Positions 4,926-34,252 of a stretch of 64,000 nt of DNA are shown here, in pieces. The stretch's first letter is position 1. Every line of letters starts with the position of its first letter. Origin of the DNA: an uncultured Candidatus Saccharibacteria bacterium (GTDB taxonomy: Bacteria > Patescibacteriota > Minisyncoccia > Phycocordibacterales > UBA918); contig CAYGKO010000001.1 of the NCBI GenBank assembly GCA_964350735.1, positions 182,578-246,577 on the forward strand. The letters run 5' to 3'. Position numbers and translations under genes: made by a program. The notes under the pieces were generated by a model. That model made no database searches and was not told the origin of the DNA. It was given only the letters and a program-made list of their open reading frames with translations.

Positions 4926-5569
4926 ACAATCACACGAAAACTATGAATGTCAAGTTTTAAAAGGGCTCTGTTGAGCCATTTTTTAATGTCTTTTATAAAA
5001 GACATTGTTGAAAAGTTTTCCCCAGTTATCCCCAAGCTTTGTCCTTTACATAACGCTATAAAGGACATAGTATATGCGTAGGCCCAGAAAGGGCAAGCAG
5101 ATAACTCTGAAGTCTTGCGAAGAATCACTTCCTCGAAAGACTTCAGAGCTATCCCTTCAAGAGCACGTTCCACAACAAATTAGATACCTCCAAATCTAAA
5201 AAAACGTTCATAACATTCCCACCTTAGTGGACAAATGTGTAACGCGATGAGCCGCGAAGAGTACCGAAGTAGTAGAGCGCTTCGTTACTCCTCCCGGCTC
5301 AACGTAGAGCACGGACAGTATAAGTTAACTAAACTAATATTGTGACATAAAGTCCACAAACAAAAGTTGAGCTCCAACAAGCGGGTAAAATGCTTAAGAA
5401 GTATAAGCAACCCACATTACGGGGCTAAGTAGCTCCAAATAAGTGGGCTCACAAGAAGATAGGTAGTAGAAGAGACGCAAAGGCCTGAAGGCTCCGGCAG
5501 CAAATCACCACACCACTGATTAGCTTCCGAATCCTTCAGGCCTTTTTTTATTTTGCTATACTCATAAAT

Positions 5570-6086: not shown

Positions 6087-7565
6087 CTATCCGACGCGGT
6101 GTTCACGCTCGATGGCTTTGATCTCAGCCGCTTCTTCAGCTTGCTGCTTTTCCTTCCCTTTTTCAGCCAGTGCCTGCAGCTCTGAAATATCCATAGCTAA
6201 CAACGCTTTTGTACGGTTATCCAGGTATTCCGCAGTGTTTGTACTAGGGTCTTCCAACACCTCTTCCAACAGTGCATGCAGCAGATATCCCAGTCTTTTC
6301 CCCGGCTTTTCCCCAAACTTGTCCATTATATGGTCACCATTGGTCTTAAGCATCTTGACCGAGATAGGGTCACGTAGCGCTTGGTCCACCATCGCTTTGT
6401 ACTTCCGGAAGCGAAACGGCTGTTCTTTCGGTCGCCCGGTCCCAATCCGGTCGCAGACCCGGAGATTTAGTAAGTCTTCGATATTATCTTCCCCAATCCG
6501 CACTATGGTCCGTCGGACGGCTGCGAGGGTGATTTCATCTGGATCAGCAAAAAACATGTGCCAACGAACCAGATTCTCTACTTTTTCAGCTAGTTCACGG
6601 GGCATCTTCAGACGTTTCATGATTTTGCGCGTCATACGGGCCCCTACGACCTCATGGCCAAAGAAGGTGTATTTCTTGTTCTTCCCGCCTTCCCGCCTCG
6701 TCGCTGGTTTACCAATATCATGCAGAAGGGCCGCTAGGCGCATCTCGGTCGAGAATTCTTTATCCGCCGCCCCTTGTAGGGTCCGCAGTAGGTGTTCGTA
6801 GACGTCGTAGGCGTGGATACCGCCCTGCTCGCAACCAATCGAGTCTTTAATCTCTGGCAGGATGTAGTCGATCAGCCCGAGGCGCTCTAGTAGCGCCATT
6901 CCCTGCATGGGGGTGGCAGAATTAATGATCCGGAGCCACTCAGCTTGGATACGTTCAACCGATATGCGGCTCAAAAGCTGGTTATTTCGGGTAATTGCAG
7001 CCATAGTGTCGCCCTCGATAGCGAAGTTAAGCTCGGCTGCCAAGCGAATCGCTCGCATCATACGTAAGGCATCTTCTCCGAAGCGTTCGTTCGGATCACC
7101 GACAGTTTTAAGGCGTTTTTTAGTGATATCCGCTTCCCCGTCAAACAAATCAACAATCGTTTCATCTTTAAGGCGGTACGCAACGGCATTGATGGTGAAA
7201 TCGCGGCGTTTTAGGTCTTCTTCCAGTGACACGCCAAATTGCACGCTGTCAGGCCGACGATTATCAGAGTAGCCATGTTCGGTCCGGTAGGGAGTCACTT
7301 CAATCACTTTTAGACGCTCATCTTCCGTTTCCTCATTTTTCACCCCAACGGTGCCGTAGTCATTATTACAAAAGGTCTCGTCTTCTCCCCAGAGCGCTTG
7401 GATTTGTTCAGGATGGGCATTGGTAGTGAGATCCCAGTCTTTGGGAGTCCGGCCGAGGAGTAAGTCGCGGGTACAGCCGCCAACCAAATACGCTTCAAAA
7501 CCAGCGTTTTCTAAAGTGTCAGCCACTGTTTGGACTTCGGTGGGGATTTGAGCGCGAGTAATCAT
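6087..7565 (-). CDS. cca: CCA-adding tRNA nucleotidyltransferase with C-terminal HD domain
   Basis: GGCTRDLLLGRTPKDWDLTT is the poly(A) polymerase head domain. HD motif LLHDIGK. The start was reset to MITRAQIP because the tracked N-terminal extension runs antisense across a tRNA gene (it translates as LPGLEPGT). Confidence 0.75.
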   Translation of the reverse strand: MITRAQIPTEVQTVADTLENAGFEAYLVGGCTRDLLLGRTPKDWDLTTNAHPEQIQALWGEDETFCNNDYGTVGVKNEETEDERLKVIEVTPYRTEHGYSDNRRPDSVQFGVSLEEDLKRRDFTINAVAYRLKDETIVDLFDGEADITKKRLKTVGDPNERFGEDALRMMRAIRLAAELNFAIEGDTMAAITRNNQLLSRISVERIQAEWLRIINSATPMQGMALLERLGLIDYILPEIKDSIGCEQGGIHAYDVYEHLLRTLQGAADKEFSTEMRLAALLHDIGKPATRREGGKNKKYTFFGHEVVGARMTRKIMKRLKMPRELAEKVENLVRWHMFFADPDEITLAAVRRTIVRIGEDNIEDLLNLRVCDRIGTGRPKEQPFRFRKYKAMVDQALRDPISVKMLKTNGDHIMDKFGEKPGKRLGYLLHALLEEVLEDPSTNTAEYLDNRTKALLAMDISELQALAEKGKEKQQAEEAAEIKAIEREHRVG

Positions 7566-7636
7566 TGGGGTAATTGTAGCAGAAAGCCGTTGCGTTTTTC
7601 TTACAAGCGACGTATAGTATTGGCCACGCAGTGATT

Positions 7637-7708
7637 GCACCTGTAGTGAAATGGATATCATAACTGACTTCGGATCAGTCGTTCCAGGTTCGAGTCCTGG
7701 CAGGTGCA
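7637..7708 (+). tRNA. tRNA-Arg(UCG); no encoded CCA (3' ...AGGTGC-A then CAAAA)
   Basis: Hand-folded: 7-bp acceptor GCACCTG/CAGGTGC, U8, D loop with GG, anticodon stem ACTGA/TCAGT, loop CTTCGGA, T arm CCAGG-TTCGAGT-CCTGG. A hairpin terminator follows at about 7739-7762. Confidence 0.7.
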
Positions 7709-7796
7709 CAAAAGAGTCCAGACAGGGGCTAGACAACAAAATCGCTCTATTGAGCGGTTTTGTTAACTCTAAATGGGGACTAATTCGCAAAAAAGC

Positions 7797-10938: not shown

Positions 10939-11601
10939 ATGGTTCGGAATGAAGAAAAGTACCAATTAGCAACACATTATCGCAAACAGGGTTTTACCTA
11001 TGCTGAAATAGCTAAGATCTGTGGGGTGAGTAAGAGTACGGTGAGTGCCTGGCTCGCTGGTAAGCGTTTTTCGAAGCAGGTGAAGCAGGATAACCAGGTA
11101 CGCGCCGGTAAAGCCAATGCTAAGCGAGTGGCTTTAGTTCAGAAAGCCCGGCAGACAGAACGGACTACTCGCTATAAAGAAGCAGTTCGTTCCGCTGAGA
11201 CTGAATACAAGCACTATAAGAGTAACCCGCAGTTTATCGCTGGCTTGATGTTGTACTTGGCTAAGGGTGATCACAATGATCCGTCACAAATTCGCCTGAC
11301 AGGGCAAGATATAACCACTCACCGCATCTTCCGAACGTTCCTAATGGAGTATTTAGGAGTAGAAAAGCAAGCGGTGCGATTTTGGCTCTTGTTGCCGAGT
11401 AATGTTTCAGAAAAGGCCACTCAAAATAGCTGGAGTAAAGTACTAAAGCTCCCTGCTGGCCAGTTCGGCAAGACGCAGGTTTTAAAACAGGAGGCCAAAA
11501 GATTGCACAATGGCACGGGAAATACTATAATCGGCAACACTGTTTTGAAGCACAAGCTCATCAAATGGATCGAGTTGGCAACAAAAGAGCTAAGTAAATA
11601 G
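10939..11601 (+). CDS. HTH domain protein
   Basis: N-terminal GFTYAEIAKICGVSKSTVSAWLAG is an HTH. The rest is basic and unassigned. Confidence 0.4.
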   Translation: MVRNEEKYQLATHYRKQGFTYAEIAKICGVSKSTVSAWLAGKRFSKQVKQDNQVRAGKANAKRVALVQKARQTERTTRYKEAVRSAETEYKHYKSNPQFIAGLMLYLAKGDHNDPSQIRLTGQDITTHRIFRTFLMEYLGVEKQAVRFWLLLPSNVSEKATQNSWSKVLKLPAGQFGKTQVLKQEAKRLHNGTGNTIIGNTVLKHKLIKWIELATKELSK

Positions 11602-11607
11602 TCATTG

Positions 11608-11678
11608 CGGCCTTGGTTAAGTGGTATAATGGGTCCTTGCCAAGGATCAGTCGGGGTTTCGATTACCCCAGGCCGCAC
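11608..11678 (+). tRNA. tRNA-Gly(GCC); no encoded CCA
   Basis: Hand-folded: acceptor GCGGCCT/AGGCCGC, anticodon stem GGTCC/GGATC, loop TTGCCAA, T arm GGGGT-TTCGATT-ACCCC. A hairpin terminator, CCCCCAGTAGGGGG plus a T-run, follows. Confidence 0.75.
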
Positions 11679-11802: not shown

Positions 11803-12954
11803 ATGGCACGAGTTGCGATTACGGAGTATGCGGCTAAAAAATTAGTCTTTGGTGATAGGTATCACGGGCTGACCGTTACGCCACAGAGTCTAGCTGATTT
11901 TTCGGTCCCCGCTGGTGATTACATTGTAAAAATTGACGTTGGGATCAAAAAACGAGGTAAACAAAGCTTAGTTCGACTTAACGTAGCTGCAAAAGATGTG
12001 CCTTCAGCAGCTAATGAGCTTTTTGCGCTTGGCTACGGTCGTTGTGTCGTGGAGGTGATGGTGCCACATAAAACAGATGCGGAGCGATATCTTTCACTCG
12101 ATGTACACCGCACTGGCTTGCAGTTGATCCACTCTGAAAAAGGCGGGGTGGAGATTGAGGCGGCGGCTGAAGCTGATATCAAGCGGACACTCGTACCTTT
12201 GCAGGAATTCTTGAGTGACACACCGTTGATCGAGATCGACGGTGTGTCACTCCCCTACTTACTCGAGCAGATGGCGCGGTATCACTTTTCGTTTATGGAG
12301 ATAAATCCCTATATTATCGCTGATAATACGTTGATTGCTCTTGATATGGCGGTTGAGATTGATTCAACTAAAGAAAATAAGCTGCCAGCGTGGGTACATG
12401 AACATATTTTGCATAAAAAAGCGGCCAGTGAGCAAGAGGCGCGGGTGCTTGAACAAGATGCGCGCACTCAAGCCGCCCTTAATTTACATACCCTTAATCC
12501 AGACGGTTCGATCTTGACCCTTTTGTCTGGGGGTGGCGCCAGTTTAGTCGGTCTCGATTCTCTCGTCACTGCTGGTTTACAAGCAGAGGTGATTAATTAT
12601 AGTGAGTATAGTGGCGCTCCGACACGCGACGAAACGGCTGCGTATGTCAGCACCCTCCTTGAAGTGTTGTTTAATTCTACCGCTAATACTAAAGTTATTT
12701 TGATCGCCGGTGGGGTGGCAAATTTTACTGACGTCCTGGCTACCTTCCAGGGAATTGTTGATGCGTTTACTGACAATCTTGAACAATTACAGGCGCAAAA
12801 CGTGTATGTCTGCGTCCGGCGTGGTGGTCCGAACCAAGAGAATGGCTTGGCCCACCTGCGTAACTGGCTTGATGAGCATGATATTCCTAATGATGTCCAC
12901 GACCCTTCCCTGTCGCTTGGTGAAGTTGGTAACTTGGTAAAAGCACATATATGA
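11803..12954 (+). CDS. aclB: ATP-citrate lyase beta-like subunit (ATP-grasp, SucC-like)
   Basis: Long collinear similarity to the ACLY N-terminal region: FMEINPY, LNPDGSILTLLSGGGASLV, NYSEYSGAPT, ILIAGGVANFTDVLATFQGIV, VCVRRGGPNQENGL. Confidence 0.7.
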   Translation: MARVAITEYAAKKLVFGDRYHGLTVTPQSLADFSVPAGDYIVKIDVGIKKRGKQSLVRLNVAAKDVPSAANELFALGYGRCVVEVMVPHKTDAERYLSLDVHRTGLQLIHSEKGGVEIEAAAEADIKRTLVPLQEFLSDTPLIEIDGVSLPYLLEQMARYHFSFMEINPYIIADNTLIALDMAVEIDSTKENKLPAWVHEHILHKKAASEQEARVLEQDARTQAALNLHTLNPDGSILTLLSGGGASLVGLDSLVTAGLQAEVINYSEYSGAPTRDETAAYVSTLLEVLFNSTANTKVILIAGGVANFTDVLATFQGIVDAFTDNLEQLQAQNVYVCVRRGGPNQENGLAHLRNWLDEHDIPNDVHDPSLSLGEVGNLVKAHI

Positions 12955-14675
12955 TAAACGAGATTCGAAATGGTGAGCCGAAGATTTTAGTAGCGGGTAA
13001 TCACGTGAAGATTATCCAGTCTATTCTTGATTTTGACTACGCAGCGGGGAAAGAATCACCGAGTGTGGTGGGGATTATTTCGGCCGGTCGCAAAAGCCAG
13101 AAGCTTTTCTGGGGTGATGGCGAGGTCTTGGTGCCGGTAGTGCCCGACGTTGAGGCAGCAAAAAAGTCTGCATTTGAGCCAGATTTCCTGCTTTGTATCA
13201 CTTCAGCTTCAAGTACACCACGGATGGCCAAAGCCTTTTTTACCGCCTTTCCGGCGGCTGTCGGCGCCCATCTCTTTGCTGAAGGGGTGGCCGAGCGCGA
13301 TGCCCTTCAGTTGATCGAAGCGTATGGCGAAGAGAAGCTTATTCTCGGTGCTTCGGGGGTTGGTCTTTGTGTACCAGGCAGCCTTAAACTAGGCGCTATT
13401 GGCGGTGTTTTAGGGGCTCGTCTTGCTGAGCTCGGTCGGACACGAGGTCACACGGCGGTGATCTGTAGTTCTGGAGGCATGGTCAACGAACTCATGTACC
13501 AAGTAGTGACGGCTGGTAGTGGAATTAGTTTCGCTGCCTGCTATGGTGGTGACCGTTTCCCGGTCACTTCCCCGCTACAATGGCTCATGCACGCTCAAAA
13601 TGACCCAGAGACTAAAGATATTGTCTATTTCGGTGAACTAGGTGGTGATGATGAATATACGCTCCGAGGCGCCATTACAGCTGGCGATATCACTAAGCCA
13701 GTCTATGCCTATATTGCTGGCCGCTACGAAAGTCAGGATGAAACCATCCAATTTGGCCATGCCAAAGCCCTCGCTAAAGCTGAATCTGAGACAGCAGCGG
13801 CTAAAATGGCTGCTTTGGCTGCTGTTGGAGTGAACGTCAGTGATACTTTTAATGATTTTATGGCAGCTTTTACTTTGCTTTCACGTGAAACCAGTGTTGG
13901 CGAGTCAGTTCGGGACTGGAGTGAACGCCCGGCTCATCTACAGCCGACCGCCTACTCAGCTCCGGCTTATACGGGTGCCCATTCGGCCAGCTTTACCGAA
14001 GGTATTTTGGCTCGCATTCTCGGTCGCAGCAGTGTTTCACGGGAAACCGCTGCCTTTGCTGAACTAATCTTTGCGCAGTTGATCGATCATGGACCACATG
14101 TGTCAGGAGCGGTAAATACCATGATCACTACACGAGCTGGCCGTGACCTTAGCTCAGCCCTGGCTACAGGTGTTCTGACGGTTGGTGATCGCTTTGGTGG
14201 CGCTATCAACGGTGCTGCTCAGATTTGGCACGATGCTGTTTCACGTGGCATCACTGCCGATGATCTGGTGACAGACTACAGCCAGCAGCGCCGTTATATT
14301 TTAGGTATCGGACACCGAAAATACTCAGTGTATAAGCCAGATCCGCGCGTACAAGCCTTGATTGAGCATGGTAAAAATGTTCTACGTGAAACACCGCACC
14401 TTGATTTTGCCTTGTCAGTTGAGACAATCACCGCTAAAAAGCGCGCTAACCTGATTTTGAATGTGGACGGTGTTATTTCGGCTCTATTTACAGACTATTT
14501 GATTGCCAAAGAAGACTTTACAGCGAAAGACATCGCTGAACTTATTGATATTGAATTCTACAATGCCTTGTTTCTCATTCCTCGTTCAGTAGGGTTTGTT
14601 GGAAATTACCTGGATCAAAAGCGGATTGACGAGGGATTATTCCGTTTGGGCGACAAAGATAGCTATAATTTTTAG
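12951..14675 (+). CDS. aclA: ATP-citrate lyase alpha-like subunit (CoA-binding SucD-like plus citrate-synthase-like domain)
   Basis: LDFDYAAGKESPSVV, catalytic-His motif QFGHAKA, and citrate-synthase-like HGPHVSGAVNTMITTRAGRDL...VGDRFGGA...ILGIGHR...ILNVDG...GFVGNYLDQKR. A 4-nt overlap with aclB suggests translational coupling. Confidence 0.7.
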   Translation: MINEIRNGEPKILVAGNHVKIIQSILDFDYAAGKESPSVVGIISAGRKSQKLFWGDGEVLVPVVPDVEAAKKSAFEPDFLLCITSASSTPRMAKAFFTAFPAAVGAHLFAEGVAERDALQLIEAYGEEKLILGASGVGLCVPGSLKLGAIGGVLGARLAELGRTRGHTAVICSSGGMVNELMYQVVTAGSGISFAACYGGDRFPVTSPLQWLMHAQNDPETKDIVYFGELGGDDEYTLRGAITAGDITKPVYAYIAGRYESQDETIQFGHAKALAKAESETAAAKMAALAAVGVNVSDTFNDFMAAFTLLSRETSVGESVRDWSERPAHLQPTAYSAPAYTGAHSASFTEGILARILGRSSVSRETAAFAELIFAQLIDHGPHVSGAVNTMITTRAGRDLSSALATGVLTVGDRFGGAINGAAQIWHDAVSRGITADDLVTDYSQQRRYILGIGHRKYSVYKPDPRVQALIEHGKNVLRETPHLDFALSVETITAKKRANLILNVDGVISALFTDYLIAKEDFTAKDIAELIDIEFYNALFLIPRSVGFVGNYLDQKRIDEGLFRLGDKDSYNF

Positions 14676-15922
14676 CCATGGAGTTTCCTGGTAGGAACTA
14701 AATACCCAGCCAGGGCGTTTGTTTATCATAAAAAGGCGTGTACCATGGTTCCACATGGAACAGATACTTCTGGCAGCTGGTATTTTCTCGTTTATTTTCG
14801 GATTAGACTATTTACGCTACCTGCTCTTCCCCGCTACCTACCGGTATGTTTCATATGAAACATATATTTTGTATATCATTGGCGTAGTGGCCACGTTTGT
14901 AGTATTTATCGATGAAATCAGTCTTTTTATCGGTGATCGGTTACACGTGGAACTGATTTACTTGTTCATTCTCTTTTTTACGGCCCTGGGGTGTTCAATT
15001 GCCATGAAACGCCACGGTGTGAACATTTGTACGACAATACTTCGATCATATAAGTGTATTTCCCCACTGTACGTACTTATAAAGACCAAAGAGCTTTTAC
15101 TCCAACAGACCTTATTTGTAGTACTAGCTGTGGGTGTTTCACGTGAAATCGGAACTGGTTTTTGGGCAGTACTCACCTTTATATTAGTTTCACTCTTGGT
15201 TCAAATACCGATAATGTTGCATGTGAAACACTTTTGGCGCTACTTATACCTAGGAATAATGGGGTTTGCTAGTGTTATTTTCTTTTATACCTATGTTTCT
15301 CTAGAATTATTCTGGCCAGCAATGTATGTACATGCGGTTATCTATACGTTTATCTGGCTTTCACTGGCTGATCCATCCGATGATTGGGGGTAACTGTGGA
15401 AAACTAAGTGGATAGGTGGATAAAGGACAGGTATTTAAAATATTTAAAAATTATGAATATGCCTATAAATAAGGGTTTAAGTAAAATATGTGTCTTTTTA
15501 TCGAAATAAGAACCAATATGTTTCACGTGGCACATACATATATTGTTCCATATGAAACAAAGTGATAAAAAAGGCTCTAAGAACCAAGTGGGTGCATATG
15601 GTGAGGAGATCTGTGTACAGTACCTGAAGAATAAAGGGTTTAAGATCCTCGGTGTTAATTACCTTAAAAAATGGGGTGAAATTGATGTAATTGCGAAACA
15701 AGGAAAAGTGGTTCATTTTGTGGAAGTGAAGACTGTTTCATATGAAACTAAAGTGACACTAGAAGAAGCAGTTTCACGTGGAAACTGGCGTCCGGAAGAA
15801 CAAGTACATGCCTTTAAGCTCAAGAAGCTTAGTCGGGTGATAGAAATTTGGCTGCTAGAACAAGCTTGGGAAGGAGAGTGGCAGATTGATGTCGCTGCAG
15901 TACGTATTGTGCCACGTGAAAC
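13878..15922. repeat. cluster of 11 parS-like palindromes (consensus GTTYCAYRTGRAAC, matching the ParB/Spo0J site tGTTtCAcGTGAAAcA)
   Basis: Hand-located sites: 13878-13891, 14034-14047, 14748-14761, 14848-14861 (perfect), 15136-15149, 15216-15229, 15520-15533, 15545-15558, 15735-15748 (perfect), 15771-15785, 15909-15922. Confidence 0.65.
14755..15393 (+). CDS. polytopic membrane protein, hypothetical
   Basis: Highly hydrophobic ORF. The tracked start is TTG at 14719, and the ATG start MEQILLAAG at 14755 is preferred. It contains several parS-like sites. Confidence 0.4.
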   Translation: MEQILLAAGIFSFIFGLDYLRYLLFPATYRYVSYETYILYIIGVVATFVVFIDEISLFIGDRLHVELIYLFILFFTALGCSIAMKRHGVNICTTILRSYKCISPLYVLIKTKELLLQQTLFVVLAVGVSREIGTGFWAVLTFILVSLLVQIPIMLHVKHFWRYLYLGIMGFASVIFFYTYVSLELFWPAMYVHAVIYTFIWLSLADPSDDWG

Positions 15923-15965
15923 ATACGCCACGATGAAATATATCCCTAATATTATAGCTGATTAG
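15543..15965 (+). CDS. YraN/UPF0102-family endonuclease-like protein
   Basis: GEEICVQYLKNKGFKILGVNYL..GEIDVIAKQGKVVHFVEVKT matches the YraN consensus. Four parS-like sites are embedded. Confidence 0.55.
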   Translation: MFHMKQSDKKGSKNQVGAYGEEICVQYLKNKGFKILGVNYLKKWGEIDVIAKQGKVVHFVEVKTVSYETKVTLEEAVSRGNWRPEEQVHAFKLKKLSRVIEIWLLEQAWEGEWQIDVAAVRIVPRETYATMKYIPNIIAD

Positions 15966-24577: not shown

Positions 24578-25535
24578 CTATATGAAAATTATTGACTTGC
24601 ACCAAGATCTGAAACTATCGTTACTCCGACCGGAATTATTAGATGTTGCTCATCGGGCTAGTCCGCAGACTAATTTCTCCCAGTTAGCATCTTCAGATGT
24701 TGCCATGTTGTTATGTACTGGTTTTCCGGTACCAAATGATGGAGACTATTTTAAGAAAGAAAATTATACAGATTTGTTTGCTGATATTGAATGGTATAGA
24801 TCTTATACAGAAGTGAATTCGGAGTGGATGATGGTTGAGGATCGTGACGATCTTGAGGCTTGCATTAACGGCGAGCATCGCGGCCTACTGTTTCATTTAG
24901 AAGGCATTAATATGTTTACCGGGGAAGCCGATGATTGGGACAAGTTAGCAGCACTTCATGAATCAGGTTTAAGATCGATTGCACTTACGTGGACTAAACA
25001 GAATTCCTTGGCAGGAGGAAATGACACTCCTGAAATTGGCATTACTACATTGGGGCACGAAGTGATTAAATGGGCGCTCGATAACAAGTTAATTATTGAC
25101 TTGGCTCATTTAAGCCATGCTGGCTTTGCCGACTTTAGTAATAAGTATGATTTACCAATTTTAGTTTCACATGGAGCGGCGCAAAAATACTGCACTGATC
25201 CGCGAAATTATTCTGATGAAGAATTGAAGGCGATTGGAAATTCCGGCGGTTGTTTTGGGATGTTCTTTTCTAAAAAGTTTGTTACCAGTACACAATCCTG
25301 TGCCATAGAGGACGTGATCCGGCAGATTAATCACGTGAGGGATACTGCAGGCATCGATGCGGTCGCTGTAGGTAGTGATTTTGGTGGAATTGTGAGTGGT
25401 ACTCCAAAAGATTTGTCGTCAGTAACAGCGTTGCCCAAATTGCTTGATTGTTTGCAGCAACAAGGGTGGACGGTGGAAGAGTGTGAGAAGTTTGCCTACA
25501 AAAATGCTTTACGGGTACTCCAAGCATATTTATAG
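24578..25535 (+). CDS. membrane dipeptidase (peptidase family M19)
   Basis: IIDLHQDL, IALTWTKQNSLAGG, DLAHLSHAGF, ILVSHGAAQKYCTDPRN and AVGSDFGG match the renal-dipeptidase family. Confidence 0.6.
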
Positions 25536-29040: not shown

Positions 29041-29111
29041 CGCGGGATTAGTTAAATGGTATAACATCTGCCTTCCAAGCAGAGGTCAGGAGTTCGATTC
29101 CCCTATCCCGC
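29041..29111 (+). tRNA. tRNA-Gly(UCC); no encoded CCA; integration target
   Basis: Acceptor GCGGGAT/ATCCCGC, anticodon stem TCTGC/GCAGA with loop CTTCCAA, T arm AGGAG-TTCGATT-CCCCT. The 3' 26 nt overlap the integrase ORF. Confidence 0.75.
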
Positions 29112-30567
29112 ACATAGTTGAAAAATCAGCATTCTTAGGGGTCCTTGCGAGCATATCGTAAGGACTTTTAAGTTGTGGTTGAGCCATTTTCTTATCTTTG
29201 AGCAAGGAGTTCGAAAGTACCTCATAGGCCATTTCTCGTTTACGCTCTGGAATTGCTTTCAAATACCTAGATTTGGCTCTACTACTGGCTATAAATAGCT
29301 TTTTTGTACGTTCGAGAGTAACTAAAGGGTCTTGGGTATTTTGTTTGAGATTGTTGAGGGATTTTGTCAGTGCGATACGGCTATGTTTAATTTCTGCCTG
29401 CTTTGCCTCATACGTTTCTTTGTTGATGCTCTCAGCTAGATACGTATCAAGTAGTTTATTTTCACGGACTTTGAGTATATCCAATTCACGCTGTGTGTTT
29501 TCAAGATGAGTTGTGTCTAATTCTCCCTCATGCTCAAGTTTTTCCAAAGCTGCTTGGTACATGATTTCTATCAGCTCCTCATCAAAAGCAATATCATCAA
29601 AGATTGAGACAAATTGCTCTTCTAATTTCTCTTGGCGCAAGAATAGCCGTTTTTGGTCGCAGATACCTTTTCCATTAGTGCAGTGGTAGTAGATGTACGT
29701 TTTTTGTTTTTCAGCAGTGACAGCGCAGCCACAGACACCACAGGTGTATAAACCAGTAAGAGGGAAGACGTGTTTTTGAGTCCGTGGCTTAGAACCGCCG
29801 GTCATGACCGTTTGGCATTGGTCGTAGAGGTCTTTAGTGACGATGGTATCAAAGCTCGCTTCGTAGTATTTTCCTGAATACAGTATCACACCGTGATAAA
29901 TAGGATTCTTGAGAATGCGTTGAATCGGCCCACAGTGTACTTTCTTGCCAGAGCGGGTGCGCATGCCTTTGTCATACATGTGGCCAGCTAATTCACGGAT
30001 GCTGTAGAGACCAGTAGCGTAATGCTCATACATCATGCGGACATACTCACCACGTACAGGGTCAATGTATAAAGTCTTGTCTACTTTGTTATTGAGATAG
30101 CCAAAGGGTGCGTTACAAGGCCAACCACCCTGACTGAGTTTTTGACGATTACCCCGCTTCACGTTTTCGGATAAATCACGAGAGTATTGGTTAGCCATAC
30201 CAAGCTCCACCGCCATCATAAGGACGTTGTCTGAGGGTAGGTATTCTTTCTCGTAGGTCTGGATGCTTTTGAGAACGTTGCGTTGTAGTAGGTCAATGAT
30301 TAGTCCGCCATCAATAAAGTTGCGAGCCAGTCTGTCTAGTTTCCAGCAGAGAAGACCGTCAGCTTTGCCAGCTTGAATTTGCTGCATAACGTTATTGAAT
30401 ACTGGACGCCCGACAGTCTTGGCGGACATACTTTCATGGTAGACGGCGGTAATTTCAATACCAAGGAGAGCAGCTGTTTCTGTTAGCTCACGCTCTTGTG
30501 CATCGAGGGACTGGATTTGTCTGTCCTCAGACTCTTGTGACTTTCGGCAGTAGAGGATGTATTTCAT
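29086..30567 (-). CDS. large serine recombinase (integrase)
   Basis: N-terminal resolvase catalytic domain (YCRKSQESED...SLDAQ...DRLARN), recombinase domain, Cys-rich zinc ribbon (CGVCGC...HC) and coiled-coil tail. 493 aa. Confidence 0.8.
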   Translation of the reverse strand: MKYILYCRKSQESEDRQIQSLDAQERELTETAALLGIEITAVYHESMSAKTVGRPVFNNVMQQIQAGKADGLLCWKLDRLARNFIDGGLIIDLLQRNVLKSIQTYEKEYLPSDNVLMMAVELGMANQYSRDLSENVKRGNRQKLSQGGWPCNAPFGYLNNKVDKTLYIDPVRGEYVRMMYEHYATGLYSIRELAGHMYDKGMRTRSGKKVHCGPIQRILKNPIYHGVILYSGKYYEASFDTIVTKDLYDQCQTVMTGGSKPRTQKHVFPLTGLYTCGVCGCAVTAEKQKTYIYYHCTNGKGICDQKRLFLRQEKLEEQFVSIFDDIAFDEELIEIMYQAALEKLEHEGELDTTHLENTQRELDILKVRENKLLDTYLAESINKETYEAKQAEIKHSRIALTKSLNNLKQNTQDPLVTLERTKKLFIASSRAKSRYLKAIPERKREMAYEVLSNSLLKDKKMAQPQLKSPYDMLARTPKNADFSTMCGIGESNS

Positions 30568-30580
30568 ATGCTATTCATAG

Positions 30581-31413
30581 TTAGCGTGTCTTTAGACTAT
30601 ACAAACTCCGCATTTCAGACAACTGTTCAGGACTCAGATTGTATGTTGCACAAAAAGTTGGGTTTTCTATAACAGGACGTTTTTTTGATGGTTTGGTAAT
30701 GTATGCGTATAGTGATTTATGGTCAGCGAGATAGTCCATAATCTCTCCCGCTATGTGTTCATGAGAAATAACCTCTGGTTTGTATAGACCTCGACTGGAG
30801 AAATATTTCTTCCTACCGACCAATCGTTTATCGAGCGCATCCTTAGTCATGTATTTTGTCATATATCTACCTACGTTCGGTATTTTGCTGACATTCTTTT
30901 TCTTGATATGGCCATGCTCCCAAATAGAAGCAAATTCTCCAGTATTAAATTCATGCCTAGCGTTAATCTTCGGGAGATTAAAGAAGACTGCATGATAGTG
31001 GACTGCTCCACGTTTTTGAAACTCTGGGACTGCAACATATTTTACAATTGATTCTTTAGTGCCGTACGTATGATAATTCAAGCGTTTAATATAATTTGTG
31101 AAGAGAGTATTTGCAGTCGCTATATCTTTAATGTTTTCATGAATCGTGTAGGTTAGAAATTGAGGTTGAATTATTACTTCAAACTCATCCAGCCACATAC
31201 GAGAATTAGCGTTTATTAGCCTAATGAGTGCATTTCTTGTACGACTCAAAGAACTTTCACTGGTGACTTGTTCAGCCAACATTCTCCTTTTACGGTATGG
31301 TGCCTGTTTTTTACTTGAAAGAAGGTCGTAGCCGATTGCTTTAGTAAACTGCTGGGCCTCAACAATGTGACCTGAAATAATTATTTTGTAGTGACTGACT
31401 CGTGGTTTTGCCA
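30581..31413 (-). CDS. rep: rolling-circle replication initiator (HUH endonuclease, phage CRI/Rep-type)
   Basis: HUH motif HYHAVFF and catalytic-tyrosine motif VGRYMTKYMTK (YxxKYxxK). Start reset to MAKPRV. Confidence 0.6.
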
Positions 31414-31746
31414 TAAATAGTTTCGAATTATGTGTATATAAAATCAAGTCACTTTCTGCTCCGCAGAAAGGCCGGCATCGGCCTTTCGCCTCACCCCACG
31501 AGGGGGCGAGGGCGAGACGAAAGCCGCTCCCGACCCACCCCAACCGTTTGAGGAAAAGAAAAAGATATATATAGTTGCGAGAACGAGGCTAGGTGTAGCT
31601 GCGCTTGTTCGCAGGAAATAGACACCGCATGTGTATCTAACATGTACCGCTTATACCGTGTGACTAATTCATTACTAAATTCCATTAACTACAGAATACA
31701 AAAAGACCCCGAGCTAACTCGGGTCAAAGTAGGGTTAGTTTTAACA

Positions 31747-33001: not shown

Positions 33002-34252
33002 TTGCAATATATCTATATGGCAACAGGCTCTATTGAAAAAAATGAAACTAGAAAGGGAGTGACGGAATTTTTTTATGTACTAAAAGAAGGGGATTCTGAG
33101 TTGCACAGGAATAAGATATTTATCGTAGATACAGTAAAATCACAAGTAAGGATGTTTCCGACAAATGCCGGCATCCCAGAAGTTGTTTTTGAAAACAGAA
33201 CTAAAGTGCCTCTAGCGCTTGTTACCGATAAGGCAAAATTTATAGCTGGTAGTTTTATTCAATATAGATTGACTAAGGAAAATATAACAATAAAAAAGAT
33301 TGTTATTGATAAAGGAATTAAAGATAGGATTGATAAGAAAACAGGAGTTTTATACCTAGAATATGAAAAACTTTTAAAGTTTAAAAAAAGACTTGCAAGA
33401 ATAACCCAGGATGCAAAGGATGATAAGTCACTAGAAGCTGATTTCTATGTTCATGATATTTTGCCTGAACACTTTAATGATCCCGATGGTGTAGGAAATT
33501 CAGTTTCAAAAAAGTTATCGAGTATATTCGACAATCTAACAGAAGATATTATTGAACATATTCCCAGAAAAAATGTCGACGAGTTATTTGAGTTTGTTAG
33601 CACTATCTTGGATAAACGGTACAAAACAGCTAAAGATAAAAAACGCCTATTGGAGTTTGTAAGAATTAAAGTTAATGAAAAACCCATTGAAGAACTAATA
33701 GGTGAATTTGAGAAAAACATTAAGGATGTTGTATCTGAAAGTGATTGGTCTAAGTTTATTAAACGTAATCTATTTTTGATTGACCCTAATTACGTTAAGC
33801 ATTACCCAGAACTTGGTGTGACTCTTGGTATTAAAATTCGTAAGGTTGATTTTGGATTGCTCGATGTTCAATCAAACTTAGATATTTTCGAAATAAAGAC
33901 AGACAGGACTCAATTGCTTGCAACAGGAGAAGACAGGGGTAATCATTATTGGAGTACGGCTGCTATAAAGGCAATTACCCAGGCAGAAAAGTATTTGTAT
34001 AATGCTGAAAGAAATGCAGACTCGTTAGAGAAGGCTCTTTTAAGAGAGACAGCTGATGAGGTTAATGTTGTAAGGCCTAGAGTTATACTTTTAATGGGTA
34101 ATAGCAGGCAACTTAAAACAAAAAATCAGAAAGAAGATTTTAGGGTTTTAAGAAAATCGCTAAAAAATATTGAGATTGTCTTGTATGACGAATTATTAAG
34201 TAAACTAACTGGTCTGAAAGATAAAAAATCTTTGTTTGGAAGTAATGAGTAA
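33002..34252 (+). CDS. Shedu-like (DUF4263) putative PD-(D/E)xK nuclease with a unique N-terminal domain
   Basis: C-terminal VDFGLLDVQSNLDIFEIK (D...E-x-K core) and the terminal NIEIVLYDELL motif are recalled as typical of DUF4263. About 32% GC. Lies 26 bp downstream of the GIY-YIG gene. Confidence 0.4.
   Translation: MQYIYMATGSIEKNETRKGVTEFFYVLKEGDSELHRNKIFIVDTVKSQVRMFPTNAGIPEVVFENRTKVPLALVTDKAKFIAGSFIQYRLTKENITIKKIVIDKGIKDRIDKKTGVLYLEYEKLLKFKKRLARITQDAKDDKSLEADFYVHDILPEHFNDPDGVGNSVSKKLSSIFDNLTEDIIEHIPRKNVDELFEFVSTILDKRYKTAKDKKRLLEFVRIKVNEKPIEELIGEFEKNIKDVVSESDWSKFIKRNLFLIDPNYVKHYPELGVTLGIKIRKVDFGLLDVQSNLDIFEIKTDRTQLLATGEDRGNHYWSTAAIKAITQAEKYLYNAERNADSLEKALLRETADEVNVVRPRVILLMGNSRQLKTKNQKEDFRVLRKSLKNIEIVLYDELLSKLTGLKDKKSLFGSNE

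Follow-up and report, generated by a model that had tools for sequence, protein, structure and literature searches.

A dense array of putative parS sites, carried mostly within codons, as the candidate chromosomal centromere of a Patescibacteria (CPR) genome

The ultra-small Patescibacteria (CPR) have for the most part not been grown in culture, and next to nothing is known of their cell cycle. In the literature that we searched, no paper links parS or ParB with these bacteria. One stretch of their DNA (64 kb, analysed as a whole and called here the window) carries a crowd of palindromes resembling the ParB-binding site parS, most of them inside genes, and raises the question of whether they constitute a centromere, the target of another protein or a by-product of the proteins that they encode. 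A sequence-only reading had counted 11 copies in about 2 kb, and this count proved exact: GTTTCACGTGAAAC with at most 2 mismatches has 11 matches in 64 kb, every one within 13878-15922, for 0.25 expected and a maximum of 2 in 100 shuffles. The two copies that it quoted are present, ATGTTTCATATGAAACAT at 14846 and CTGTTTCATATGAAACTA at 15733. Searching with the 16-mer TGTTTCACGTGAAACA at up to 3 mismatches gave 10 matches, 10/10 inside the array, whereas the remaining 62 kb had none at this threshold; at 4 mismatches, four further sites of the array were recovered (14237, 14747, 14939, 15770), together with five scattered matches outside it, which is the chance level. A pattern derived from the clade, GTTNCAYRTGNAAC with at most 1 mismatch allowed, matched 14 times in the 64-kb window against 0.55 expected, 13 times in the array and once at 25164. 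The interval 13877-15923 thus holds 13-14 parS-like palindromes, about one per 146 bp, among the following genes and elements:

10939..11601, plus strand, HTH23, a conserved 220-aa HTH protein, bounding the array interval on its upstream side in every relative
11607-11678, tRNA-Gly, downstream of HTH23
12951..14675, plus strand, ATP-citrate-lyase alpha-like gene (aclA; Pfam Ligase_CoA, Citrate_synt), with sites 1-4 in its 3' half
14719..15393, plus strand, 224-aa ORF without a family match, with sites 5-9
15395..15429, plus strand, three DnaA-box-like 9-mers, TGTGGAAAA, AGTGGATAG and GGTGGATAA, fused to TAAAGGACA
15432-15518, A+T-rich stretch (82%) after the DnaA-box-like cluster, including 23 nt of pure A/T
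15552..15965, plus strand, yraN (UPF0102; Pfam PF02021 5.5e-17, NCBIfam YraN), the conserved core host

The sites themselves are:

13877..13892, parS-like site 1, GCTTTCACGTGAAACC, in aclA, read L-L-S-R-E-T
14033..14048, parS-like site 2, TGTTTCACGGGAAACC, in aclA, read S-V-S-R-E-T
14237..14252, degenerate parS-like site 3 (4 mismatches), TGTTTCACGTGGCATC, in aclA, read A-V-S-R-G-I
14378..14393, parS-like site 4, TGTTCTACGTGAAACA, in aclA, read N-V-L-R-E-T
14747..14762, parS-like site 5, GGTTCCACATGGAACA, in the no-family ORF, read W-F-H-M-E-Q, an exact match to the clade core pattern
14847..14862, parS-like site 6, TGTTTCATATGAAACA, perfectly palindromic around CATATG, in the no-family ORF, read Y-V-S-Y-E-T
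14939..14954, parS-like site 7, GGTTACACGTGGAACT, in the no-family ORF, read R-L-H-V-E-L
15135..15150, parS-like site 8, TGTTTCACGTGAAATC, in the no-family ORF, read G-V-S-R-E-I
15215..15230, parS-like site 9, TGTTGCATGTGAAACA, in the no-family ORF, read M-L-H-V-K-H
15519..15534, parS-like site 10, TGTTTCACGTGGCACA, intergenic, directly upstream of yraN
15544..15559, parS-like site 11, TGTTCCATATGAAACA, spanning the ATG start codon of yraN, read M-K-Q
15734..15749, parS-like site 12, TGTTTCATATGAAACT, in yraN, read T-V-S-Y-E-T
15770..15785, parS-like site 13, AGTTTCACGTGGAAAC, in yraN, read A-V-S-R-G-N
15908..15923, parS-like site 14, TGTGCCACGTGAAACA, in yraN, read I-V-P-R-E-T

The host genes agree with those named by the sequence-only reading, namely an aclA-like gene, a YraN-like gene and a 'membrane protein' ORF, the last being the 224-aa ORF, which evolves fast (33% identity to its homologue in L008). 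A single small gene, yraN, can hold up to five sites, one of them across its own start codon. The earlier statement that YraN shows no insertion was not confirmed: no indels occur at the sites within the clade, but the Pfam UPF0102 match spans 101 residues for 80 profile positions, so that extra residues must lie somewhere in that stretch. Around the array, the order of housekeeping genes (exonuclease, CCA enzyme, HTH23, yraN, CorA, sigma factor) is common to dozens of species. The window also encodes NusA, trigger factor, ClpP, PGK, TIM and RecJ; its non-coding block at 4.9-5.6 kb matched no Rfam family at the gathering and E-value thresholds, and a mobile element lies elsewhere, at 29-35 kb.

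The type of the palindrome was established from the clade. The logo of 88 clade sites reads tGTTyCAYRTGrAACa, which is the canonical ParB site TGTTNCACGTGAAACA, as the parS-type assignment made from the window had proposed. Positions G2, T3, T4, C6 and A7 are conserved at 93-99%, the central pyrimidine-purine step is retained, and position 5/12 is degenerate, likewise in TGTTNCACGTGAAACA; over these 88 sites, the 16-bp palindrome agrees with tGTTNCACGTGAAACa at all informative positions. G2 and A7 are of the parS type and not of the Noc-NBS type, and relatives hold perfect copies of TGTTTCACGTGAAACA. Degeneracy is nevertheless the rule: the 54 arrays compared total 350 sites, of which only 35 have at most 1 mismatch and 195 have 3 mismatches. 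The CATATG-centred variant is common in the array, and we know of no report of it as a ParB substrate.

Comparison between species showed how individual sites are kept. In aclA, the orthologue of site 1 is found in four relatives (L008, L003, L010, L014) and that of site 2 in 8/10 clade species and 0 outgroups, and 6 species with AclA identities of 69-100% share the 16-mer of site 4 unchanged, even at synonymous positions. Only the left half of site 3 is perfect; it looks like a decaying copy, because the orthologous sites are better in all nine relatives. Upstream of yraN, most relatives have sites at a position equivalent to that of site 10. Among 47 distinct yraN genes, site 12 is the most conserved of the family (about 70%); site 14 has an orthologue in about 50% and site 11, at the start codon, in about 30%. 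Synonymous codons of aclA are identical at a rate of 0.70 inside three orthologous sites and 0.42 elsewhere, a difference reached by 3/5000 permutations, which supports the earlier proposal that the motif is maintained within normal codons. Outgroup proteins have neither the site residues nor the site codons. At one position of aclA, V-S-x-E is in part older than the sites. The array is a DNA element that is conserved and under selection, and it is selection on the DNA which makes the host proteins read V-S-R-E-T or F-H-V-K.

At the level of the locus, all distinct loci having both HTH23 and yraN (48/48) carry 3-13 sites in the interval between these two genes. This interval totals 299 sites, or 2.46 per kb, versus 15 sites in 518 kb of flanking DNA, or 0.029 per kb, an 85-fold enrichment; the sites, confined to a single stretch of at most 2 kb, mark one conserved chromosomal locus, as had been suspected from the window. 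In the circular contig ctg321093_13x_c of a relative (ENA ERZ25072999, 1,083,307 bp), the array is at about 533.4-533.9 kb. The ACL locus behaves differently according to the divergence of AclA: at an identity of at least 66%, 8/8 GTDB species, plus L003, have 4-13 sites there, versus 0/72 species at an identity of 59% or less. An anchoring of the array on aclA was considered and rejected, since relatives without ACL carry the array on yraN. The distribution indicates that yraN and its flanks are the ancestral core of the array, which in the clade of the window has spread also into aclA/aclB and the membrane-protein ORF. More generally, individual sites are gained and lost, and the array grows into any genes present in the interval (aclA/aclB and the unannotated ORF in the window and, in a sister species, def).

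We conclude that the array is very probably the chromosomal centromere, a putative parS array, of this Patescibacteria genome, which is probably of the Paceibacteria/Parcubacteria type. It is a known kind of element in a new lineage setting, and not a new kind. Against this reading stand the mismatches of most sites, the common CATATG centre and the lack of partition genes in the DNA covered: the absence of parAB from the window, claimed earlier, was confirmed, no window ORF of at least 120 aa matching the ParA, ParB or DnaA families, and no parA, parB or dnaA was detected in 171 related loci (2.27 Mb) by motif regular expressions and by tblastn, for which Spo0J, Soj and DnaA of B. subtilis, in sequences not taken from a database, were the queries. 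We infer that the cognate binder would be a canonical ParB whose gene lies outside the DNA covered. The mechanism that we propose is taken from established ParABS biology: ParB dimers would recognise each 16-bp palindrome, and bound ParB would take CTP, close into a clamp and slide onto the adjoining DNA, so that many close loading sites could give rise to one large ParB-DNA partition complex, segregated by ParA and loading SMC/condensin. The high density of sites may offset the weakness of degenerate ones, or else maximise ParB loading. The sequence-only reading had also offered a novel site for condensin loading; this does not amount to a separate idea, ParB-parS being the known SMC loader.

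The same reading had suggested that the array could lie near the replication origin, and an origin-proximal position, at or next to oriC, is plausible in view of a conserved DnaA-box-like cluster in the array and of the switch of GC skew and gene orientation, although no dnaA lies nearby (neither in window ORFs of at least 120 aa nor in the 171 related loci). In 46 related loci the cluster precedes yraN by 50-200 bp, with a constant orientation. It came to light only through conservation between loci; over the whole window, DnaA boxes with 1 mismatch show no overall enrichment (11 versus 14.5 expected). The TAAAGGACA inverted repeats fused to it are a rarer second motif, with only 3 copies in 64 kb, all beside DnaA-box-like clusters. 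At the locus, GC skew turns from negative to positive and gene orientation becomes divergent, both in 12/13 relatives and in the window, with about 10 kb covered on the left side; in 12/13 loci the cumulative skew reaches its minimum upstream of HTH23, at a distance of 0-4 kb.

Other explanations have to be weighed against a parS centromere. The reader of the palindromes might not be ParB but HTH23, in which case the array would be a lineage-specific centromere, or a system organising the origin, with no more than a resemblance to parS. The gene for this protein bounds the array interval in 48/48 loci holding HTH23 and yraN, it is unusually well conserved (53-70% identity over the full length), no parAB is near the array in any locus, and its HTH plus LAGLIDADG fold resembles that of WhiA, a DNA-binding factor tied to cell division and chromosome segregation. 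We nevertheless hold this to be improbable: the logo agrees with the canonical ParB site wherever it is informative, and convergence by an unrelated HTH protein is unlikely; a more natural target for HTH23 would be the TAAAGGACA inverted repeats, whose GACA(C) is similar to the WhiA motif, GACAC; and the gene may be a mere syntenic neighbour. A related proposal, for this large group of Patescibacteria, fuses origin and centromere into one compact module unlinked to dnaA/parAB, comprising a DnaA-box cluster and unwinding region in the yraN parS array, the conserved HTH/LAGLIDADG (WhiA-like) protein and a conserved structured RNA of about 450 nt. The palindromes would then be recognised not by standard ParB alone but by a non-canonical partner, for example the WhiA-like protein, or with its help; we give this proposal a slim chance.

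The repeats could also be a centromere belonging to a plasmid or phage that has integrated here, plasmid centromeres being dense repeat arrays and a mobile element being present in the same window, or a dispersed repeat that happens to be dense locally. This is very improbable and largely refuted, because the array lies in the housekeeping synteny shared by dozens of species, adjoins no partition, replication or integration genes, and has irregularly spaced sites. A plasmid-type iterated centromere (sopC/parC-like) was rejected on the distances between sites in the window, which vary between 25 and 369 bp and follow no fixed period, and on the lack of adjacent par genes; a dispersed genomic repeat (uptake signal, REP-like) was rejected on the lack of copies with at most 3 mismatches in the other 62 kb, where the looser clade pattern adds only the one at 25164, and on the sparsity of sites in the flanks of the relatives. 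That the repeats only reflect a recurring peptide motif (V-S-R-E-T), or composition and chance, and do nothing at the DNA level has practically no chance of being right. It is true that 9/13 intragenic sites encode V-x-[RY]-[EG]-x (precisely V-[SLP]-[RY]-[EG]-x) and that one aclA position had V-S-x-E partly in place beforehand, but 4/13 use the second permitted frame, reading [FL]-H-[VM]-[KE], and further sites are intergenic or lie in def, a gene on the minus strand (L001/L008). The third frame of the palindrome, which gives a TGA stop, is used by 0 sites. The shuffles (observed count reached by 0/100), the use of frames, the conserved synonymous codons, the outgroup proteins and the enrichment in 48 loci refute this explanation.

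Comparison with known parS systems shows what is shared and what is particular. Known clusters had been described in the sequence-only reading as sparser, which is wrong for Myxococcus xanthus, where most of 24 parS sites lie within about 3 kb (bioRxiv 10.1101/2021.05.05.442810), a dense chromosomal array of canonical 16-bp sites comparable in density to the 13-14 in 2 kb found here. That cluster is near oriC but not at it (about 30 kb), nucleates one ParB complex (PMC3778016; bioRxiv 10.1101/2021.05.05.442810) and is directly upstream of parAB (PMC3778016). In our case, no parAB is found within 14 kb and 48 kb on the two sides of the array in the window, or within 10 kb in the relatives; the sites are almost all in codons, many are degenerate, and the array sits on a DnaA-box-like cluster. 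In Corynebacterium glutamicum, one cluster of B. subtilis-type parS in the ori region likewise organises ParB and SMC loading; its 10 sites, 9/10 of them intergenic, cover 35 kb and lie 73 kb from oriC, and sites with at least 3 mismatches failed to recruit ParB (PMC7083940), whereas most sites of the present array have 2-3 mismatches. That cluster is about 20-fold sparser than the present array. B. subtilis and Caulobacter crescentus share the consensus TGTTNCACGTGAAACA and tolerate intragenic sites (e.g., in spo0J), but the sites of B. subtilis extend over tens to hundreds of kb, those of C. crescentus are fewer, and no single small gene there is known to have up to five, with one across its start codon. 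In both species, parS functions through the clamp that ParB forms with CTP and through the loading of SMC. A very high density of sites for a ParB-family protein is also known from sopC of plasmid F, made of 12 tandem 43-bp repeats bound by SopB in under 1 kb; sopC is regular, non-coding and beside sopAB, whereas here the spacing is irregular and the sites sit inside unrelated genes without a neighbouring par operon.

What is known of the working of ParABS is left unchanged by this array, which offers a clean natural case of an array of binding sites imposing amino-acid sequence on its host proteins. Easily recognised and probably origin-proximal, it could serve as a sequence landmark for orienting and checking CPR assemblies and for growth-rate estimates based on coverage, and the parS sites plus the DnaA-box cluster are candidate cis-elements for stable vectors in the few cultivable members. 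Finally, with respect to helical phasing, the spacings between sites across arrays peak at 24-26, 34-36, 45-48 and 57 bp, peaks that have to be read with two facts in mind: many of the pairs are orthologous, and intragenic sites in the same frame are necessarily multiples of 3 bp apart.

With up to two mismatches, the 14-mer GTTTCACGTGAAAC gave 11 matches, all in 13878-15922 and none in the rest of the 64-kb window, against a chance expectation of 0.25 and a maximum of 2 among 100 shuffles, which agrees with the 11 copies counted in the sequence-only reading. All ten matches of the 16-mer TGTTTCACGTGAAACA at up to three mismatches also fell inside the array; at four mismatches, it gained four extra matches there and five scattered outside, which is chance level. 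The pattern derived from the logo of the clade (the close relatives by AclA), GTTNCAYRTGNAAC, gave 14 matches at up to one mismatch (0.55 expected by chance); 13 of these fell in the array, the other being at 25164. Combining the three counts, we retained 13-14 sites; the array spans 2,047 bp and averages one site per 146 bp or so. The sole clade-pattern match outside the array, GTTTCACATGGAGC (25164-25177, within a Peptidase_M19 gene), is probably due to chance or a weak accessory site. The host genes are those already named from the sequence alone:

12951-14675, ATP-citrate-lyase alpha-like gene (aclA), with sites in its 3' half
14719-15393, 224-aa ORF without family match, earlier called a membrane protein gene
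15552-15965, yraN/UPF0102 gene

Nine of the 13 intragenic sites translate as V-[SLP]-[RY]-[EG]-x and four as [FL]-H-[VM]-[KE]; the third reading frame, which would give TGA, is used by none, and the yraN start codon falls within one site. In same-amino-acid codon pairs of ten aclA orthologues, synonymous identity was 0.70 in three orthologous sites versus 0.42 elsewhere, a value reached by 3 of 5000 random placements, and TGTTCTACGTGAAACA was unchanged in six species with AclA identities of 69-100%. The sites occupy variable protein segments, without indels in aclA, and the outgroup AclA sequences are unrelated there in both residues and codons. These alignments show that the parS-like sites are selected as DNA.

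The conservation of the locus was studied by an AclA-alignment scan of GTDB species-representative genomes, in which relatives occurred in 404 stretches; the best 80 were used as loci. Among these 80, every species with an AclA identity of at least 66% (eight GTDB representatives, plus locus L003) carried 4-13 parS-like sites between aclB and yraN, and all 72 species at or below 59% had none at the ACL locus. Most of the clade shares orthologous sites at aclA alignment positions 1163, 1367 and 1508; other sites have shifted (968/980, 1508/1547), which indicates turnover. In the sister species L001 and L008, an opposite-strand peptide-deformylase gene inserted between aclA and yraN bears sites as well. 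The widely shared gene block runs: exonuclease, about 0.8 kb gene-free, CCA-adding enzyme, HTH23 (a conserved 220-aa HTH protein, at 10939-11601 in the window), variable insert, yraN, CorA, hydrolase, sigma factor, DUF5667 and MscS. Three genomes with an HTH23 homologue and no ACL genes here had yraN-centred arrays of 7 sites in 840 bp, 5 in 535 bp and 8 in 515 bp, which rules out ACL as the anchor.

An HTH23-alignment scan of metagenomes added 80 further loci. In all 48 distinct loci reaching both HTH23 and yraN, the interval from the HTH23 end to 300 bp beyond yraN contained 3-13 sites (median 6; median array span 660 bp), that is 299 sites or 2.46 per kb, versus 15 sites in 518 kb of flanks (0.029 per kb), an 85-fold difference. 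The yraN gene carries up to five orthologous site positions (start codon, IDIVAR-ET, VEVKTVSYETK, AVSRGTW and VRIVPRE(K/T)YA), the VEVKTVSYETK site being present in about 70% of yraN genes. Because compact yraN-centred arrays occur across these loci, we infer that the ancestral array was a compact one on yraN, of which the window array is an enlarged form. Two Patescibacteria lineages that are more distant, with exonuclease and CCA genes near ACL, have parS-like sites in or just past the CCA-adding-enzyme gene and not on yraN (L020, 1401-2516, 7 sites in 1.1 kb; L042, 220-561, at least 3 sites); other genes of this neighbourhood thus host intragenic parS arrays too.

From 88 clade sites, a symmetrised logo of tGTTyCAYRTGrAACa was obtained, with 93-99% conservation at G2, T3, T4, C6 and A7. 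Like the published TGTTNCACGTGAAACA, the logo is degenerate at position 5/12, and its centre retains a pyrimidine-purine step (CG, CA/TG or TA). G2 and A7 are parS-type bases, and not those of Noc-NBS. When the 48 intervals were screened without bias for enriched 8-mers, the words returned were parS sub-words, words of the tRNA-Gly gene adjoining HTH23, and GTGGATAA. The simplest reading is that of a predicted ParB loading array. By analogy with established ParABS biology, ParB clamps would load on the sites in a CTP-dependent manner and then slide, ParA would drive segregation of the ParB-bound array, and the latter would load SMC. Most sites are degenerate: among 350, 6 were perfect, 29 had one mismatch, 120 two and 195 three. 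In C. glutamicum, sites with at least three mismatches are unbound (PMC7083940). A ParB gene was found neither among the window ORFs of at least 120 aa nor in 2.27 Mb of related loci, and these ORFs gave no match to the ParA and DnaA families, in line with the earlier statement that the window holds no parAB. Centre-to-centre spacings of neighbouring sites (54 arrays, the window and loci L003-L170) peak at 24-26, 34-36, 45-48 and 57 bp, in steps of about 11 bp, which may not reflect helical phasing since many pairs are orthologous and intragenic sites sharing a frame fall multiples of 3 bp apart.

The GTGGATAA words make up a cluster that is conserved in 46 loci, where three to four DnaA-box-like 9-mers of the same orientation precede yraN by 50-200 bp; ACTGTGGATAACCAGGTGGATAGGTGGATAAAGGACA is a typical example of such a cluster. 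The elements concerned in the window and its relatives are:

15395-15429, DnaA-box-like cluster, between parS sites 9 and 10
5014-5034, second pair of DnaA-box-like 9-mers
4987-5072, promoter region of a structured-RNA candidate
5078-5549 (+), structured-RNA candidate, in the gene-free stretch from exonuclease to CCA-enzyme gene
L001 4899-5346, L089 6942-7379 and L090 6350-6731, homologues of this RNA

After the cluster at 15395-15429 comes a stretch with 82% A+T, including 23 pure A/T bases. The fused word TAAAGGACA has only three copies in 64 kb, one at 15395-15429 and two beside 5014-5034. Positions 5014-5072 and 15395-15429 are conserved composites of tandem DnaA-box-like 9-mers (TTATnCACA type) and TAAAGGACA / TGTCCTTTA inverted repeats.

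In 12 of 13 distinct 20-kb loci, where left arms are short and gene orientation confounds the skew, GC skew changed from negative on the upstream side to positive on the downstream side, and its cumulative minimum preceded the HTH23 gene by 0-4 kb; the window follows the same pattern, with its minimum near 7.5 kb. In the window and its relatives, genes point away from the locus on both sides. The skew switch, the diverging genes and the box cluster form the signature expected at an origin, and these sequence features make origin proximity plausible, not established; the composites could then be parts of oriC. The fact that dnaA is not nearby counts against such proximity, and the composites could instead be DnaA-regulated promoters of the structured RNA and yraN.

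The sequence-only reading held that known parS clusters are much sparser, a premise that proved wrong because the M. xanthus array is dense: most of its 24 parS sites lie within about 3 kb, in a stretch that precedes parAB and is some 30 kb away from oriC (bioRxiv 10.1101/2021.05.05.442810; PMC3778016). Dense chromosomal parS arrays are thus already known, and the 13-14 sites in 2,047 bp are a further example. Unlike the M. xanthus cluster, which adjoins parAB, the present array has no parAB in its neighbourhood, and its sites are almost all intragenic, whereas the 10 parS sites of C. glutamicum, spread over 35 kb, are nearly all intergenic (PMC7083940). Particular to the array are its Patescibacteria host, its near-wholly intragenic sites, one small gene as conserved host, a neighbourhood without parAB and a DnaA-box-like cluster embedded within it. 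No publication on parS in Patescibacteria/CPR was found in the literature searched.

The structured-RNA candidate is conserved, with a length of about 370-640 nt. Its 5' AGGCCCAGAGAGGGCGAGCAG is invariant, it also contains an anti-SD-like ATACCTCCAA, and its terminator stem is long and covarying. RNAalifold on 16 sequences predicted 44 pairs; compensatory double changes occur in 35 of these. An Rfam search of 5078-5549 returned no family, and the candidate is not a tmRNA.

The best 80 ACL loci came from Patescibacteria-type or unclassified MAG deposits, except a few labelled Gammaproteobacteria or Azotimanducaceae. The homologues and syntenic loci are all from MAGs of Patescibacteria (CPR), with depositor labels that comprised Pacebacteria, Nomurabacteria, Kaiserbacteria, Paceibacterota and Saccharibacteria. 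The window contains ordinary chromosomal genes (NusA, trigger factor, ClpP, RNase Y, PGK, TIM, RecJ and type IV pilus genes), and an ATP-citrate-lyase-like aclB/aclA pair (11803-14675) in a CPR genome. The mechanical ORF of the CCA-adding enzyme (6087-7790, minus strand, 567 aa, TTG start) overlaps tRNA-Arg(TCG) (7637-7709, plus strand); the proteins of relatives have only 490-492 aa, which makes a start downstream of this tRNA probable. Finally, the segment 29042-35000 beside tRNA-Gly(TCC), where GC falls to 0.35-0.41, is likely an integrated mobile element, with the following genes:

29086-30567, large serine recombinase
30581-31543, Rep protein
33002-34252, Shedu SduA defence gene
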